From contig JAKLII010000002.1 in NCBI GenBank assembly GCA_022709695.1, positions 346,955 through 410,954 of the forward strand: DNA of 64,000 bases, in the 5' to 3' direction. Position numbers and translations under genes: made by a program. Positions 39,751-45,791 of the stretch are shown piece after piece; the first letter of the stretch is position 1, and each line of letters opens with the position of its first letter. The notes under the pieces are model-generated. The model did not search any database. It saw only the letters and a list, made by a program, of their open reading frames with translations, and was not told the DNA's origin. The DNA comes from Bacteroidota bacterium. GTDB lineage: Bacteria > Bacteroidota > Bacteroidia > Bacteroidales > SKPS01.

Positions 39751-41034
39751 TCAGCGGGCAATCATCACTTTACCTCTGTAGCAGGTACCAGAAGCATCTT
39801 CTGCAACCAGCAGGTAACATCCCTGTGGCCACATTTTATCCATTTCCAGACTGAACCTTTCGGAGGGTGTGTCCGATGGCCGGGAGCTTTGCATCAGCCT
39901 TCCTGACAGATCAAAAACCGAGACCGCAACCAGCTCCACCGGATCAGAAAACTGCAGACGGATAATCTGATCAGTTATCCAGATGCGTTTCATCTGATCG
40001 GGTCGGGCCACGGGAATCCCCTGGGTTGATGGGGTAAGTTTCAGTTTCATCACCACGGGAAGATGGTCGGAGGCTTCATACAGGTTCTGGAGAATGACGG
40101 CAGGTACGCTGTTGTTGGAACCGCTGGTAATCGACTGGTTCAGGTGGTTTCCGTCGTTGCCCAGCGCTTTATAGGTTCCGGGGATATACTCGTAAAAGGA
40201 GAGGGACTTTTTCAGTTTTTTATTCAACAGGATGAAATCGAACCGGTCGTCAAGGCCACCTCCGGAAGCGCAGCCGTTTGAGGAGGAGCGGACCGATTGG
40301 GTATGGGTAACGGCAAACAGCTGGTTGTCCTGCCAGGCACCGGACATGCTGACAGGGTCGTAAAACACCTCGCCGGTTGTATCGGCAGGCGAGGTAAAGT
40401 TTTTCCAGGCCTGCTCACTGGCCGTATACAGGTTCATATCGCCCGACAGTATTGCAGGATAGCCGCTCCAGAGGGCGGCACTGTCCATGATGATTTTTGC
40501 CATGGCAGCCCGTTCTGAAGCGTCGGCACTTGTGTTGCCCGCTTTGAGGTGGGTGCATATCACATATAAGAATGCGGTATCCTGATGTAAAGGGAGATTC
40601 GGGTCGTTGTGGTAGAGTTTGATGATATTGATATCACGTGCCATGGTTGCCAGCTGATGTTGCGAATGAAGGACAAGTTTCCGGGTATCAAAAAACACAA
40701 AATTGGCCAGATCGGTGCCACTGATATTGGTCAGTGCTGATCCCTGGTAGTGGCTGATGCCATTGATATTCAACACATTATTCAGGAAATGGGTGGGTGC
40801 AAAGGAGTTGGCGCCCACTTCATTTACCGTAATTATATGGGGGGCCATCCAGGTGCATACCACTCCCATGGCAGCCGCCTTGGTGGTGATGTTGTTGTTC
40901 GTCTGGGTGCAATAGGTGGTGGTATTTCCGTAATTCAGCAGATTCCAGTGCATTATGGTGAGGGTATCCTGTCCATGGATCCCGTTGATCATGCCTGTTC
41001 CAAGGAAGAGGAAACAGATGAGTTTTTTTATCAT
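39751..41034 (-). CDS. Secreted endonuclease/exonuclease/phosphatase (EEP) fold protein with a T9SS C-terminal sorting domain
   Basis: 427 aa with a signal peptide. The EEP start is TIMHWNLLNYGN, followed by internal ILSGDMN and ASDHLPVVMKL motifs. The C-terminal beta-sandwich tail reads VSVFDLSGRLM...GCYLLVAEDASGTCYRGKVMIAR. Its ATG overlaps the upstream DUF349 stop (ATGA at 41031-41034). Confidence 0.8.
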   Translation of the reverse strand: MIKKLICFLFLGTGMINGIHGQDTLTIMHWNLLNYGNTTTYCTQTNNNITTKAAAMGVVCTWMAPHIITVNEVGANSFAPTHFLNNVLNINGISHYQGSALTNISGTDLANFVFFDTRKLVLHSQHQLATMARDINIIKLYHNDPNLPLHQDTAFLYVICTHLKAGNTSADASERAAMAKIIMDSAALWSGYPAILSGDMNLYTASEQAWKNFTSPADTTGEVFYDPVSMSGAWQDNQLFAVTHTQSVRSSSNGCASGGGLDDRFDFILLNKKLKKSLSFYEYIPGTYKALGNDGNHLNQSITSGSNNSVPAVILQNLYEASDHLPVVMKLKLTPSTQGIPVARPDQMKRIWITDQIIRLQFSDPVELVAVSVFDLSGRLMQSSRPSDTPSERFSLEMDKMWPQGCYLLVAEDASGTCYRGKVMIAR

Positions 41035-42281
41035 GACCTGCCAAGTTTGCTGTGGATATCGGCAATATCTGCCTCAAGCTGCCGGATCATAGCCTGTTTG
41101 CGCTCCAGCTCGGCCTGCGATCGTGCCAGCTTCTCCTCAATTTCGAGCTTCATATCCACCGATTTCAGTTCAGCAGGTAATTTTTCAAGACGTAACTGCC
41201 ATTCCGTAAAATGGTTCCGCTCATACTCCATGGCTGCTTCGAGCCGGGAAATCTCTTCCGTTTTCCGTGCAATTGCCTTCTCCATATTCATCCTCCACAC
41301 GGCCTGATTTTTCTGCCATTCGATCCTTTTTTCCTCGAAATGGATCCTCTTCCGTTCAAAGAAATGGTCACAGGCCTCCCTGAAGGATTCCCACAACCGG
41401 TCACCTTCATCTTTGGGCACGGGCCATGCGGCTTTCCACTCCTGTTGCAGCTGTTTGATTTTCTCTGAAGTGTCATTCCATTCAACCGATTCCTTCAGGC
41501 TTTCTGCCATTTTGCAAAGGTTTTGCCGGATGATAAGGTTAGCCAGCCGCTGTTCATCGAGACGATTATTGTGATCGGTTTTGCGTTCAAAGAAATGGTC
41601 GCAGCTTTTTCTGAACCTTTCCCACAGTTCTTCGGTTTTTTCCCTGGGTACCGGTCCGATGTTTTTCCATCGTTCCTGCAGATTGATCATCAGGGGGGTA
41701 ACCTCAGTATAATCTTCACGCTCTGCCAGTGACTCAGCTTCAATGCACAAGGCTTCTTTCAGCCTGAGGTTTTCTTCCCGCTCCCGGTCCTTTTCCTCAT
41801 ACTTCAGTTTTCGTCTCTGGAACGCCATGTCCTGGGCGGATCTGAACCGTTCCCAAAGGGCTTCACTTTTCTCTCTGGGGACAGGTCCGATCTGCTTCCA
41901 TTCTGCGAAGAGTTTCTGCATCTCTTCGGCCGCTTCATCAGGGTCTTCCAGGTTTTGCAGTGCTTCTGCCAGTTCGCAGAGTTCCGTTTTGCGGTAAAGG
42001 TTATCAATCCGTTCCAGTTCCTGATTCTGAAATGCCCGTGTACGGTTCTCAAAGAAGGCATCACACGCTTTCCGGAAGCGGTTGTAAAGTTCATCGGCCA
42101 ATTCACGCGGAAAAACCGAACCTGTGCGCTTCCATTCCTGCTGAAGTTCTTTCAGCTTTTCAGCCGTTTCGCGCCATTCGGTACTGTTCTGCAAACGTTC
42201 TGCTTCCCGGCAAAGCTGCTCCTTTGCCTTTAAGATCTGTTCCTGTGACTCGGGGCTTCGCGGGGGGTTGACATCCGTCAT
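41031..42281 (-). CDS. DUF349 repeat protein
   Basis: 416 aa with at least four copies of an approximately 70-aa repeat, L..EWK..G.VPREK.E.LWERFR.ACD.FFERK. A coiled-coil C-terminus follows, and there is no signal peptide. Confidence 0.85.
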   Translation of the reverse strand: MTDVNPPRSPESQEQILKAKEQLCREAERLQNSTEWRETAEKLKELQQEWKRTGSVFPRELADELYNRFRKACDAFFENRTRAFQNQELERIDNLYRKTELCELAEALQNLEDPDEAAEEMQKLFAEWKQIGPVPREKSEALWERFRSAQDMAFQRRKLKYEEKDREREENLRLKEALCIEAESLAEREDYTEVTPLMINLQERWKNIGPVPREKTEELWERFRKSCDHFFERKTDHNNRLDEQRLANLIIRQNLCKMAESLKESVEWNDTSEKIKQLQQEWKAAWPVPKDEGDRLWESFREACDHFFERKRIHFEEKRIEWQKNQAVWRMNMEKAIARKTEEISRLEAAMEYERNHFTEWQLRLEKLPAELKSVDMKLEIEEKLARSQAELERKQAMIRQLEADIADIHSKLGRS

Positions 42282-42301: not shown

Positions 42302-43687
42302 TTACTTATGAACCTTTCTGATAAACTCTTCCACTTCAGGCACACCGCCCTGGTACACCAGATAACCGTTGTAGGGTTCGCGGTCGGTGATCTCGCCATT
42401 TACCGGTGTGAGCATCATCCGTTTAACTTCTGCCGGATCGTTGGTCTGGGCCAGCACCCAGCTGAGTTTCACCCAGGCCACTTCGGGCAGCATGTTCCCG
42501 GCAGGGATAATCCCTTTGGCCATCATATCCCTTCCGGTATCGTACACAAACATATGCACATACCCCCAGATGGTTTGCAGGGTCATGTACATGTGCACCC
42601 CTTTGGCGTGTGCCCGTTCAATGGCCGGGTACAGCTCCTTGTTCACATGCCCCAGTCCGGTTCCCACAATGACCACACCCCTGTACCCTGCATTTACCAA
42701 TGCGTCCAGCGTATCCGGCTTCATGCCCGGGTAGTAGTACATCATGGTTACGTCATCTGCAAAATACGGGAAGATATTGACATTGCGGTCTTTCCTGCGT
42801 TTATTGTACTGGGTGTGAATGGGTTTGAAATCGGTCTTGCTGATCATGGCCAGCGGAGTGTCGCCGATGGTTCTGAAGGTGGAGCGGTAGGAGGAGTGCA
42901 TTTTCCTGACCCTGGTCCCTCTGTGGAGGAGCCCGTATTCATCGGATGTAGGCCCGAACATACATACCATCACCTCGGCGATGTCGCCATGTCCGGCGGC
43001 TTTCATCGCATGCTGGAGGTTAAGTGCCGCATCGGAGCTGGGGCGGTCGGACGAGCGCTGGGAGCCCACCAGGACAACCGGTACCGGAAGATTCTGTACC
43101 ATAAAGGTTAAAGCTGCTCCGGTATGATGCAGGGTATCGGTCCCATGTCCCACCACAATACCGTCGATGCCGTTTCGGATCTCTTTTCCGATGGCTTGTG
43201 AAAGGGCGATGTACTGTTTTGGCCCCATGTTCTCGCTGAACACGGCAAAAATTTTCTCGGTTTCGAGATTGCAGATATCCGCCAGTTCAGGAACAGCCCC
43301 GTAGAGTTCTCCGGGGGAGAATGCAGGAATTACGGCACCGGTACGGTAATCGAGACGTGAGGCAATGGTGCCTCCGGTTCCGAACAGCTTCACATTGGGC
43401 AGTCCCGGTGTCACAGGGAACTGTTTCTCGGGAATCTTGTAATTGGCTTTCTTGTAGCCGGTTTCAACCATGGACGTGATGGTCCGTGTATCAATTCCGA
43501 TATTATAGCCTGTGGAAATCTTCATCACCACATGTTTGTCATCGTCGTTTTCGGCCCGTGGGAGCACTGTACCAGAAAAATTTCCCCGGGTGGTTTCCAC
43601 CTCGGCCTGCCCCCATACCCGAACATTGAAACGCTTCAGCATTTCAAGGGCTTCCCCTTTGTATCCCTGAAAAATATCTTCACTCAT
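42302..43687 (-). CDS. gatD: Glutamyl-tRNA(Gln) amidotransferase subunit D, archaeal type (asparaginase-like glutaminase subunit)
   Basis: 461 aa. The GatD-specific N-terminal domain (GTVLPRAENDDDKHVVMKISTGYNIGI) precedes a type-I asparaginase fold. That fold carries GTGGTIASRLDYRTGAV and VVGHGTDTLHHTGAAL. By recall, the layout closely follows archaeal GatD. Confidence 0.85.
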   Translation of the reverse strand: MSEDIFQGYKGEALEMLKRFNVRVWGQAEVETTRGNFSGTVLPRAENDDDKHVVMKISTGYNIGIDTRTITSMVETGYKKANYKIPEKQFPVTPGLPNVKLFGTGGTIASRLDYRTGAVIPAFSPGELYGAVPELADICNLETEKIFAVFSENMGPKQYIALSQAIGKEIRNGIDGIVVGHGTDTLHHTGAALTFMVQNLPVPVVLVGSQRSSDRPSSDAALNLQHAMKAAGHGDIAEVMVCMFGPTSDEYGLLHRGTRVRKMHSSYRSTFRTIGDTPLAMISKTDFKPIHTQYNKRRKDRNVNIFPYFADDVTMMYYYPGMKPDTLDALVNAGYRGVVIVGTGLGHVNKELYPAIERAHAKGVHMYMTLQTIWGYVHMFVYDTGRDMMAKGIIPAGNMLPEVAWVKLSWVLAQTNDPAEVKRMMLTPVNGEITDREPYNGYLVYQGGVPEVEEFIRKVHK

Positions 43688-43699
43688 ACCTCAATACCT

Positions 43700-45682
43700 T
43701 TAATTCTGTTCACTATAATTTCTTACCATCTCCGACAGATCCGAAAGAGCGATGTTCCCGATGGCAGTCGGAATAAGCTGTCCCATAATCCAGTTGTGCA
43801 TATCCCGGTCGTTGGTTGATTTGCGGATGGCATGGAACTTTTGCTTCAGGAACGGGATTTTCGACCGGATATCCTCAGCTGCGGTCCGCTTGAATTTCAA
43901 CAGCGTCAGCACACTGTCGAAGTCCATTTTGGGATGCTGATACCAGACCGGCAGGATTCTGTATGCTATCGCGGGATTCAGATTTTCCTCGCGGAGGTAC
44001 CTGAACATTTCGGAAAGTCTTTCGTAGCTGAAATCGGGGGTGGTTTTGTATTTGCCTTCCACCGATTTAAGGTAATGTCCGAAGAATGTGCCTATATACC
44101 GGGGGCTGAATCCGGTTTCATGAATGATGGTTTCGATGCAGGGAAAAAGGTTTTTACTGAGGATATACACATAGGTATCGCCGGGGATTCCCCACTCAGC
44201 CATTTTTCTGATTCGATCTGCCACATCCTCCGGAAGGTTCTTGCCAAGTTCAGTTATATAGCTGTCTTCGAGGGGGATGGGAGTGGTATCGGTATCAGGG
44301 TACATACGGTCGGCCCCGGGGAGTACCCTTTCGAAAATGGTAGTGCCATCTTCGAAAGATTTCCGGGTTTCGGGGGGTATTCCCTGGAAGAGCATATCAC
44401 CACGTTCCTGAATCACATCCAGGGCGGTTGCCACATCCCCTTCCGGTCCCCAGAAGATGATCTGTGCGTCAGTGTTGGCAGCGCCGAGGCGGCTTGCAAT
44501 CTTCTGCATATCGTCGTTGGCGATCATGGGCACCAGGTCTTCCGAAGTGGCCATGTTGGGCTTTTCGATACATGCAATCACTTTCAGGCGGTCGCTGAAA
44601 TCATTGGCCACACATTTTCCCGGCTGGGTAAAATGGCACAGGACACCCTGAAAGTGCGGAAGATTGACAGCTACAATCTTTTCCTTGCGCTGATGCGCAT
44701 TTTTCAGGGCATCGCAGGGAAAACTAAAATCTGACAGCCTGATCTCCTGATGGGCTATTTTCCATAAAGCCGGATCCGGAATCCTGGTACGCAATGTTTC
44801 GCGTACTGCCAGCAGCGCCCATTGCCTGAAAGCCTCGTTATGGGTAAGTTCTGGAATCCATTTGGTATGGGCTACCCCCTTGATTTCGACACGATGGCCG
44901 CCACGGCAGCTCACATTCACATCCTGCCTGCCGGCTCCTATACCGGTACGGACCAGGCCGGTGCTGCGGTTCAGGAACCTGATATAGTCGCATGCTTCTT
45001 TCACCTCATCGGGATTTACCATATCAGGATAGGTAACCGTTTCGATCAGTGGCATTCCCAGACGGTCGGTCTTGTAGATTCTTCTGTGGCCGATATCAGA
45101 TATTTCGCGGCACGAGTCCTCTTCGAGGCTGAGCTGGATCAGGCGTATCTTTTTATGGCGAAGTGCAATTTCCCCTTCCACACCGATGATGGCAGTACGC
45201 TGAAACCCGGTCGGGATACTGCCGTCGAGATACTGCTTACGGGTTACGTGCACCTCCCCTACGATATTCAGTTTGCTGAGCTGCGAAATGATAATGGAGA
45301 TTTCGAGTGCCTGGCGGTCGATATGGAAAGGGGGCGTATCATCCACCTCATAGGTGCAGGCCGTTTCATTGTTGATACGGTATATGATCTCCTTCCGGGT
45401 TTTGAATTCCATCAGGGCCGTTCCGTCATACTCACCCAGCTCACTGAGGGTAGGCCGCATATGGCGGATAATTTCGGCATTGTAGTTTTCGTGGGAATGG
45501 TATCTTCCGGCCGGGCATTTACAAAACAGCTTCCTCTCCGTCTTAAGTTGCTGGTGTACCTCCAGGCCCGACATAAACCCAATCCTGTCGTAATCGTGTT
45601 GTGTTGCCTCTTTTCGTGTAACGTACCCAATGGCTTTCCGGGTTGCTTCGTAATGTTCCCGGGGATCTGTGATTCTGTTCAT
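43700..45682 (-). CDS. gatE: Glutamyl-tRNA(Gln) amidotransferase subunit E, archaeal type
   Basis: Start taken at ATG 45682 (MNRITDPREHY...), which gives 660 aa. The GatB/E cradle is marked by GLEVHQQLKTERKLFCKCP, RPTLSELGEYDG, CTYEVDDTPP, GFQRTAIIG and DRLGMPLIETVTYPDM. Length and extra central region fit GatE rather than the roughly 480-aa bacterial GatB, and a YqeY-like tail is present. The gap to gatD is 12 nt. Confidence 0.85.
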   Translation of the reverse strand: MNRITDPREHYEATRKAIGYVTRKEATQHDYDRIGFMSGLEVHQQLKTERKLFCKCPAGRYHSHENYNAEIIRHMRPTLSELGEYDGTALMEFKTRKEIIYRINNETACTYEVDDTPPFHIDRQALEISIIISQLSKLNIVGEVHVTRKQYLDGSIPTGFQRTAIIGVEGEIALRHKKIRLIQLSLEEDSCREISDIGHRRIYKTDRLGMPLIETVTYPDMVNPDEVKEACDYIRFLNRSTGLVRTGIGAGRQDVNVSCRGGHRVEIKGVAHTKWIPELTHNEAFRQWALLAVRETLRTRIPDPALWKIAHQEIRLSDFSFPCDALKNAHQRKEKIVAVNLPHFQGVLCHFTQPGKCVANDFSDRLKVIACIEKPNMATSEDLVPMIANDDMQKIASRLGAANTDAQIIFWGPEGDVATALDVIQERGDMLFQGIPPETRKSFEDGTTIFERVLPGADRMYPDTDTTPIPLEDSYITELGKNLPEDVADRIRKMAEWGIPGDTYVYILSKNLFPCIETIIHETGFSPRYIGTFFGHYLKSVEGKYKTTPDFSYERLSEMFRYLREENLNPAIAYRILPVWYQHPKMDFDSVLTLLKFKRTAAEDIRSKIPFLKQKFHAIRKSTNDRDMHNWIMGQLIPTAIGNIALSDLSEMVRNYSEQN

Positions 45683-45713
45683 CTGTAAAATCTTCTCTGA
45701 ATGGATAAGGTGC

Positions 45714-45721
45714 CAAAAGTA
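45714..45721 (-). promoter_or_regulatory. Candidate -7 box (TACTTTTG) for the gatE-gatD array
   Basis: On the minus strand TACTTTTG matches TAnnTTTG about 30 nt upstream of ATG 45682. It lies inside the longest-ORF extension (to 45769), which argues for the shorter start. The nearest TTTG upstream is only 12 nt away, so the -33 element is unclear. Confidence 0.4.
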
Positions 45722-45791
45722 GGGAAAAAACCCCAAAGGGCCGTATTCCCTTTTTCCCGATATTTGCACCGTTAATTAACACCTTCGGCAG

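Follow-up and report, generated by a model that had tools for sequence, protein, structure and literature searches.

A GatDE-type tRNA-dependent amidotransferase pair encoded in a Bacteroidales chromosome and its bacterial relatives

Introduction

How does an amidotransferase that has been treated as an archaeal signature come to be encoded in a Bacteroidota chromosome, and what would it do there? The question is raised by two neighboring genes, gatE and gatD, in a 64,000-nucleotide stretch of a Bacteroidales genome (GenBank assembly GCA_022709695.1, contig JAKLII010000002.1, positions 346,955 to 410,954), which is referred to below as the window. Reviews of 2008, 2021 and 2022 describe GatDE, the enzyme that makes Gln-tRNA(Gln) from Glu-tRNA(Gln), as an archaeal signature or as confined to Archaea, and its co-evolution with archaeal tRNA(Gln) has been used to explain why archaea never acquired glutaminyl-tRNA synthetase (GlnRS). 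An initial annotation of the window had recognized the pair and proposed an old inter-domain acquisition that either replaces GlnRS and the bacterial amidotransferase GatCAB or has been recruited to a different substrate.

Judged by its sequence, the window GatDE is a bacterial member of this known enzyme family, ordinary for its lineage and not special to the window. Our analysis favors, with a probability of about 0.6, a reading in which the host has a GatDE amidotransferase (alpha2-beta2) that would work on Glu-tRNA(Gln) alongside GlnRS or as a backup to it, and in which the genes would stem from an old transfer from an Asgard-like source, with a later arrival in Bacteroidales.

Identity and architecture of the two subunits

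Both open reading frames were found on the minus strand at the reported positions, with lengths of 461 and 660 residues and with the motifs that had been quoted for them (Table 1). The GatD protein scores 493.7 bits against TIGR02153 and 493.6 bits against NF003217 (cut-offs 324 and 310, respectively), compared with 360.7 bits for the type I asparaginase subfamily model and 154.5 bits, below the cut-off, for the type II model. Its Pfam domains follow the order of the GatD architecture, with GatD_N (PF18195) at residues 29-70, the N-terminal asparaginase domain (PF00710) at 98-287 and the C-terminal asparaginase domain (PF17763) at 312-425. Identity to the GatD chains of the archaeal structures 2d6f and 1zq1 is 45-46%, and residues T104, T183, D184 and K262 are conserved with both; a threonine nucleophile and a Thr-Asp-Lys triad have a catalytic role in GatD (PMC2330236). 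In the GatD of a Thorarchaeota locus (L090:7953-9302), a cysteine replaces the threonine nucleophile in the column of window T104, unlike in the nine other GatDs compared.

The 660-residue protein matches the GatE model TIGR00134 with 389.9 bits (cut-off 319.55), and NF003107 with 450.9 bits over an alignment that reaches residue 656, missing the cut-off of 456 by 5 bits. The GatB models score far less, with 114.7 bits for the best of them (cut-off 338) and 110.2 bits for TIGR00133 (cut-off 314.8), and the best sequence matches in the PDB are the archaeal chains 2d6f_C and 1zq1_C. The pair is therefore GatD plus GatE, and not GatB plus a stand-alone asparaginase, as the outcome of setting GatE and GatD models against GatB and asparaginase models.

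In Pfam, the GatB_N cradle domain of GatE is split by an insertion. In a joint alignment with GatB, residues 1-28, 70-106, 308-433 and 447-458 of GatE have no GatB counterpart, so that GatE is longer by about 200 residues in all and has the large central extra region that had been reported for it; the segment 308-433 is gapped in every GatB of the alignment. Taken alone, this central insertion gives a weak Pfam GAD match (E=0.059, below the cut-off). A fold search gives weak aspartyl-tRNA synthetase (AspRS) matches, and PF02938 is precomputed for many of the GatE relatives in the bacterial clade described below. The YqeY-like tail was likewise borne out: the tail alone matches GatB_Yqey only weakly (E=0.025, with 14.9 bits where the cut-off is 27), and alignments of full-length GatB chains with the GatE model run over 655-666 columns, tail included.

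The AlphaFold model of GatE has a mean predicted local distance difference test score (pLDDT) of 85 and a predicted template modeling score (pTM) of 0.83, and residues 477-660 are all-helical and confidently modeled. Template modeling scores against archaeal GatE (1zq1_C and 2d6f) are 0.78-0.81 on the target, the highest for 1zq1_C (0.81), and exceed those of all GatB chains. The Mg2+ ligands H43, E187 and E214 are present and correspond to H15, E157 and E184 of Methanothermobacter thermautotrophicus GatE, mutation of any of which abolishes activity (PMC2330236); every known catalytic residue of both subunits is in place in the alignments. Furthermore, window GatE carries the consensus residue at 70 of the 70 columns that are conserved in the bacterial and archaeal clades alike.

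Residues 70-106, a part of the cradle domain that GatB lacks, are modeled with pLDDT values of only 30-59, yet the segment contains residues that do not vary among the aligned bacterial GatE proteins. From the model, it may be flexible and take on order when tRNA or GatD binds.

Occurrence of gatDE in bacteria

A saturated protein search of approximately 5.8 billion sequences, of which the best 120 clusters were considered, returned proteins 65-90% identical to window GatE. Those with names come nearly all from metagenome-assembled genomes (MAGs) of Bacteroidales, Bacteroidota or Bacteroidetes and are already labeled GatE by NCBI or JGI. A scan of GTDB with one genome per species, which yielded at least 80 loci, showed that at least 80 species-level genomes carry a GatD 76-89% identical to that of the window; their titles name Bacteroidales, Lentimicrobiaceae, Salinivirgaceae, Marinilabiliales and similar groups, and assembled chromosomes and Mb-scale contigs are among them. 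Large sequences that bear the genes include OW818690.1, JAXHMP010000001.1, CAVVMO010000004.1, Ga0208462_1000001, Ga0228535_1000001 and contigs of 5.98 Mb (P0341) and 4.13 Mb (P0405). A profile search added further members of the bacterial clade, named Calditrichia, KSB1, Krumholzibacteria, Latescibacteria, Aminicenantes, Desulfaltia and CSSED10-310. All six of the non-Bacteroidales members that were inspected lie in contigs of bacterial context, with neighbors that include sigma-54 activators, HPr kinase/PTS genes, RND efflux systems with an outer-membrane factor, RlmN, MurC/MurD, MraZ, RsmH, Lnt, HU, ClpS and KdtA. GatDE is thus not restricted to Archaea, being present in the window, in at least 80 genomes of bacterial species and in other phyla. 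An archaea-only distribution is, in any case, a statement on occurrence and not on structure, and membership in the GatDE family is unaffected.

The novelty of the occurrence is correspondingly limited. The lineage commonly carries GatDE, and hundreds of bacterial MAGs already have GatD or GatE labels from public annotation pipelines. On the other side, the reviews cited above call the enzyme archaeal, and a full-text literature search found no paper on bacterial GatDE, most subscription journals being outside its coverage and an earlier report being possible. A large and conserved bacterial branch, evidently functional by its sequence, would weaken the status of GatDE as an archaeal 'signature', and gatD and gatE should not serve as markers of archaeal contamination when MAGs are checked.

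The arrangement of the two genes is conserved: 79 of 87 sequences (the window and 86 loci) have gatD directly after gatE and on the same strand, with gaps mostly between -8 and +84 nucleotides. The eight exceptions comprise six truncated contigs and two genomes with gatD and no gatE within 10 kb. These two are Bacteroidales loci (L039:10001-11386 and L074:10001-11386), one of them from the assembled chromosome OY781965.2; upstream of the lone gatD lies a MjaI-type restriction-modification pair in L039 and an arginase-family gene in L074. In a long-read Bacteroidales MAG (L046:8021-9984), gatE is split over three reading frames, probably through assembly indels rather than as a pseudogene. A 571-residue GatE homologue in a Gram-negative bacterial context (L088:10001-11716, near HU, ClpS, KdtA, a sulfatase and a fucosidase) has no gatD in the flanking 10 kb and may be an orphan or repurposed. 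Also observed were GatD or GatE proteins of Bacteroidales or FCB (Fibrobacteres-Chlorobi-Bacteroidetes) type, at high identity, in MAGs titled Chlorobiota, Saprospiraceae, Lentisphaeria, Omnitrophica WOR_2 and Clostridiales (L021, L069, L070, L083, P0081 and P0347), which suggests mis-binning or mislabeling, or else recent transfer.

Phylogeny and origin

An exhaustive search of 1.84 billion representatives at 50% identity gave 585 GatE-family clusters at E<=1e-30, in a score gradient that runs from Bacteroidales-like clusters through approximately 35 full-length clusters at 41-53% identity to the bulk at 28-38%. Neighbor-joining trees with Kimura distances were built from 127 GatE sequences, a sample biased toward sequences resembling the query. 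The unrooted tree falls into two groups, one of which contains both solved archaeal proteins and has four members in all that are verified as archaeal, while in the other the Bacteroidales sequences are nested among the intermediate clusters; bootstrap support is 100/100 for this bacterial clade and 100/100 for the Bacteroidales subclade within it. When the tree is rooted with five authentic GatB sequences from the PDB, the bacterial clade is monophyletic in 52 of 60 replicates and the archaeal set in none of 60. Branching from the root are, in order, a few unlabeled sequences, mainstream archaea, a Thorarchaeota-containing group, then Heimdallarchaeota, and finally the bacterial clade, with the Bacteroidales crown at the end of a long stem. 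Heimdallarchaeota are the nearest archaeal neighbor of the bacterial clade in 72 of 100 replicates without the outgroup and in 28 of 60 with it.

Individual residues point in the same direction. Seven Asgard-grade GatE proteins show the bacterial states Y111, Y151, I/V156, P157 and D463 in place of the V, V, N, T and E of mainstream archaea, and the motif RKQYLDGSIPTGFQRT is the same in Heimdallarchaeota and window GatE. However, Y151 and P157 are also found in GatB, so that some of the states shared by Asgard archaea and bacteria may be ancestral. Two Asgard loci are archaeal by context, one with an archaeal ribosomal protein cluster and the other with DNA polymerase D, and the Thorarchaeota locus L090 has the same gatE-gatD order as the window with a 2-nucleotide gap. 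Window GatD shares 58-86% identity with other bacterial GatDs and 43-49% with four from archaea, the highest of the latter values being with Heimdallarchaeota. A plasmid search found no GatE-like gene on a bacterial plasmid, its sole match being a Natrinema megaplasmid.

Since Bacteroidales form the crown of a bacterial clade that spans several phyla, the immediate source of their GatDE was, from these sequence relationships, probably another bacterium, and the archaeal link would be much deeper. We propose that a single old transfer took gatDE from an Asgard-like archaeal source to bacteria, and that the genes would then have spread among the FCB group and other mostly uncultured phyla, reached Bacteroidales later and been completely ameliorated. 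The inter-domain acquisition that had been postulated for this chromosome thus holds in that the composition is native (see below) and an old origin in archaea agrees with the phylogeny, and does not hold as an event specific to this chromosome.

An alternative that we regard as improbable is that bacterial GatDE is an ancient inheritance. Internal diversity in the bacterial clade equals that of the archaeal sample (mean identity 0.43 and 0.41, respectively), the unrooted tree splits cleanly at 100/100 and midpoint rooting separates the two groups, Y151 and P157 look ancestral through their presence in GatB, and published phylogenies have proposed that the last universal common ancestor had GatDE. 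Against this, GatB rooting never yields a monophyletic archaeal set and places the bacterial clade beside Asgard-grade sequences, of four archaeal GatDs compared, the one from Heimdallarchaeota comes closest, and outside Bacteroidota the named bacterial members belong only to a few further FCB-group phyla and a handful of other lineages, while GatDE is universal in archaea.

Genes for glutaminyl-tRNA synthesis near gatDE

The 64-kb window contains no tRNA gene, glnS, gltX or gatCAB. In the window and 140 loci, a search for tRNA genes, in particular tRNA-Gln, returned only Ala, Val, Leu, Arg and Met tRNAs, none of them linked to gatDE. Neither glnS nor gltX was found in the window and 86 loci (1.43 Mb) with an E. 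coli GlnRS query; the query does work, since it later found glnS in three metagenome loci where the assignment was verified by NCBIfam. When gatB was sought at all loci with the five authentic GatB sequences, only gatE was matched, at approximately 30% identity. An attempt to find glnS and gatDE on one Mb-scale contig by pairing GlnRS and GatE matches paired only the window's own contig, and two GlnRS matches labeled Bacteroidota belong to assemblies outside the gatD-bearing MAGs that had been found.

A metagenome scan directed at the non-Bacteroidales part of the clade provided at least 80 further loci. In three of them, from non-Bacteroidales bacterial lineages, a full-length glnS (TIGR00440, 702-783 bits, cut-off 426) lies 0-6 kb from gatDE (L142:102-7595, L126:249-5283 and L163:2018-11377). 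A bacterial-type gltX stands directly upstream of glnS in L142, which places gatE, gatD, glnS and gltX within 7.6 kb. The three loci represent distinct lineages, as their GlnRS proteins are 65-68% identical, their GC fractions range from 0.49 to 0.63 and their genes are differently arranged. For a given single-copy gene, the chance of occurring in at least 3 of the 168 loci fetched overall is approximately 0.01-0.045, so that the proximity of glnS and gatDE is suggestive of more than chance but not decisive. Bacterial GatDE can coexist with the direct GlnRS route, and replacement of GlnRS, one of the two roles originally considered, is untenable as a general rule for bacterial GatDE when glnS stands beside gatDE in three other lineages and gltX in one.

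Comparison with known amidotransferases

Compared with the archaeal enzymes of M. thermautotrophicus (2D6F) and Pyrococcus abyssi (1ZQ1), the window pair has the same two subunits, the same GatD_N and type I asparaginase domains in GatD, the same cradle, AspRS-like insertion, helical region and YqeY-like tail in GatE, the Mg2+ ligands and the Thr and Thr-Asp-Lys residues, and a gene order that also occurs in Thorarchaeota. It differs in its bacterial host, in its distance (45-46% identity for GatD and approximately 30% for GatE over trimmed columns), in the divergent tail and in seven positions of the cradle. Also significant is the tRNA: archaeal GatDE reads the A1-U72 pair of archaeal tRNA(Gln) together with features of its D-loop, whereas in bacterial tRNA(Gln) the typical pair is U1-A72, which bacterial GatCAB recognizes and which is expected in the window host. 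Furthermore, GlnRS is found in no archaeon, while the related bacteria described above have it together with GatDE. The nearest archaeal relatives by score (379 bits), tree and signature residues are the Asgard proteins of Heimdallarchaeota (P0165 and P0279) and Thorarchaeota (P0191), which are nevertheless only approximately 36% (GatE) and 43-49% (GatD) identical to those of the window.

With bacterial GatCAB, the window pair would share a tRNA-dependent kinase, an ammonia tunnel and transamidation, GatE and GatB being paralogues with a common cradle and tail. In contrast, the ammonia donor of GatCAB is the amidase-type GatA with GatC, where the window has an asparaginase-type GatD and no GatC, and GatB has approximately 480 residues and lacks the AspRS-like insertion of the 660-residue GatE. 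Deinococcus, Thermus and Bdellovibrio possess GlnRS and GatCAB together, which resembles the combination of GlnRS and GatDE in L126, L142 and L163; for Bdellovibrio, GatCAB is reported to be linked to asparagine supply. These dual-route bacteria use GatCAB, while in the three loci an amidotransferase of the archaeal, Gln-specific type stands in a cluster with glnS and, in L142, with gltX.

Proposed function and its alternatives

By analogy with archaeal GatDE, as summarized in PMC2330236, GatE would bind Glu-tRNA(Gln), which the host glutamyl-tRNA synthetase would supply, and phosphorylate the gamma-carboxyl group of the glutamate with ATP and Mg2+ through H43, E187 and E214. GatD would hydrolyze glutamine or asparagine by means of the nucleophile Thr104 and the Thr183-Asp184-Lys262 triad, and the ammonia would pass through an internal tunnel to GatE to form Gln-tRNA(Gln). 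Because three other bacterial lineages keep glnS, and one of them also gltX, beside gatDE, this pathway would run parallel to GlnRS or back it up instead of replacing it.

Several observations weigh against this proposal. Neither the 64-kb window nor any of the 87 Bacteroidales-type loci contains glnS, gatCAB, gltX or a tRNA(Gln) gene. The specificity of bacterial GatDE must have shifted or be relaxed, because the archaeal enzyme reads A1-U72 and bacterial tRNA(Gln) typically carries U1-A72, and at seven positions of the cradle domain the bacterial GatE has fixed other residues than mainstream archaeal GatE. If the host also has GlnRS, the retention of GatDE would call for a selective reason of its own. 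Finally, the sister relation to Asgard archaea has only 47-72% support in neighbor-joining trees of a query-biased sample.

The seven clade-specific cradle positions are, from the alignment, candidates for adaptation to bacterial tRNA(Gln), and bacterial GatDE would then represent a natural experiment on how an amidotransferase adjusts when the first base pair of its tRNA differs. Why a cell that bears GlnRS would keep a Gln-specific indirect pathway is a further question raised by these loci; possible added roles are the clearing of mischarged Glu-tRNA(Gln), a second supply of Gln-tRNA(Gln) or a shift to Asp-tRNA(Asn). Quite tentatively, an Asgard-derived GatDE beside GlnRS across Bacteroidales and mostly uncultured, largely FCB phyla might constitute an unrecognized second route to Gln-tRNA(Gln), or a means of clearing mischarged Glu-tRNA(Gln), and as such a core translation enzyme adapted to bacterial tRNA(Gln).

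A change of substrate, the second role originally considered, appears unlikely. GatDE would in that case amidate Asp-tRNA(Asn), which is the Asp-amidotransferase role of GatCAB, or both substrates, with GlnRS making Gln-tRNA(Gln) and GatDE serving for asparagine synthesis on tRNA. A pure Glu-tRNA(Gln) amidotransferase indeed looks redundant where glnS accompanies gatDE, as it does in three lineages; no gatB was found near any gatDE locus searched; and the seven differing cradle positions are near the catalytic pocket, with Y151 and P157 matching dual-substrate bacterial GatB. However, Asgard GatE has these two residues as well, so they did not arise as an adaptation in bacteria, the 70 columns that are conserved in both clades are all kept, and clustering with gltX and glnS, not with aspS or asnS, points to the Glu/Gln system.

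Less probable still is recruitment to a job outside tRNA metabolism, for example as a coupled glutaminase and kinase on a small molecule or peptide, with only the fold retained. Such a change would be in line with the unpaired genes of L088 (a shortened gatE), L039 and L074 (gatD) and with a YqeY-like tail in window GatE that is too divergent for the Pfam cut-off. It is opposed by the retention of the cradle, AspRS-like insertion, helical and tail domains, all confidently modeled, by the conserved operon, by the adjacency of gatDE to glnS and gltX in other lineages and by extreme purifying selection. Relative to the close relative L002, gatD has a dN/dS ratio of 0.014, the lowest of nine genes, and gatE one of 0.073, and GatD is 97% identical to its L002 counterpart compared with 89-94% for Dxr, RseP and TerC; both genes are under strong purifying selection.

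Genomic setting and authenticity

The flanks of the pair are typical of Bacteroidota, in agreement with their first description. They encode UppS, BamA, two OmpH proteins, TilS, DsbD, a TonB-dependent receptor and several cargo proteins of the type IX secretion system (T9SS), as well as Pgi, Pgk, Dxr, RseP, GroES/EL, SecG, LptE and a sigma-54 activator. No compositional break, a judgment previously made by eye, was found either: in GC content, GC content at third codon positions (GC3), synonymous codon usage and tetranucleotide composition, gatD and gatE stay within the normal range of the window. The gene order of the window recurs in L002 and L003, two independent assemblies from different samples, whose GatE is 90% and GatD 97% identical to the window proteins. 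That the pair consists of archaeal genes brought into this bacterial contig by contamination or chimeric assembly is therefore a negligible prospect, given this shared gene order and the presence of the operon in at least 80 Bacteroidales-type genomes that include Mb-scale contigs and assembled chromosomes, along with native composition and codon usage, a Bacteroidota-type promoter box upstream and a bacterial clade of sequences that are only 30-46% identical to archaeal proteins.

Gene start, promoter and neighboring genes

The two genes form one operon, and no terminator-like site is present within the spacer, which has the previously reported length of 12 nucleotides. The reported promoter box, TACTTTTG, was likewise located at 45721-45714, 31 nucleotides from the gatE ATG (Table 1), and it fits the -7 consensus of Bacteroidota, which we take, from Bacteroides promoters, to be TAnnTTTG. 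Upstream of the ATG at 45682, the open frame of gatE continues as far as a GTG at 45769; this GTG was rejected as a start, since the promoter box lies downstream of it and homologues have 653-661 residues. The position of TACTTTTG and the lengths of the homologues place the start at the ATG. Scans for sigma-70 promoters and intrinsic terminators gave no excess over the shuffled expectation, the sigma-70 consensus being unsuited to Bacteroidota.

Table 1. Positions of the gatE-gatD genes and associated features in the window.
Feature	Position	Strand	Description
gatE	43700..45682	minus	660 aa; predicted tRNA-binding kinase/transamidase subunit of Glu-tRNA(Gln) amidotransferase
gatD	42302..43687	minus	461 aa; predicted ammonia-supplying glutaminase/asparaginase subunit
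gatE-gatD spacer	43688..43699	minus	12 nt
GatE-specific central insertion, residues 308-433	44384..44761	minus	AspRS-like / GAD-type; missing from GatB
GatE C-terminal helical and tail region, residues 477-660	43703..44254	minus	divergent YqeY-like tail
Putative -7 promoter box TACTTTTG	45714..45721	minus	31 nt upstream of gatE ATG
DUF349 gene	41031..42281	minus	20 nt downstream of gatD; Pfam DUF349, 273 bits

The DUF349 gene is possibly co-transcribed with gatD. The pairing is not conserved: apart from the window, only its closest relatives, L002 and L003, have this gene after gatD. Beyond gatE-gatD, synteny of the operon neighbors is likewise confined to the closest relatives, and a search across the gatDE loci for a conserved third gene found none. 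Two genes after gatD, and overlapping the DUF349 gene by 4 nucleotides, lies a 427-residue open reading frame (window:39751-41034, minus strand) with no Pfam match, a homologue of which (approximately 43% identity) is present in 16 other gatDE loci. In L001, a 428-residue gene with a faint Por_Secre_tail match stands directly after gatD. Among the several T9SS cargo genes of the window is a 2281-residue open reading frame (window:25318-32163, minus strand) with lamin-tail domains and a C-terminal T9SS sorting domain.

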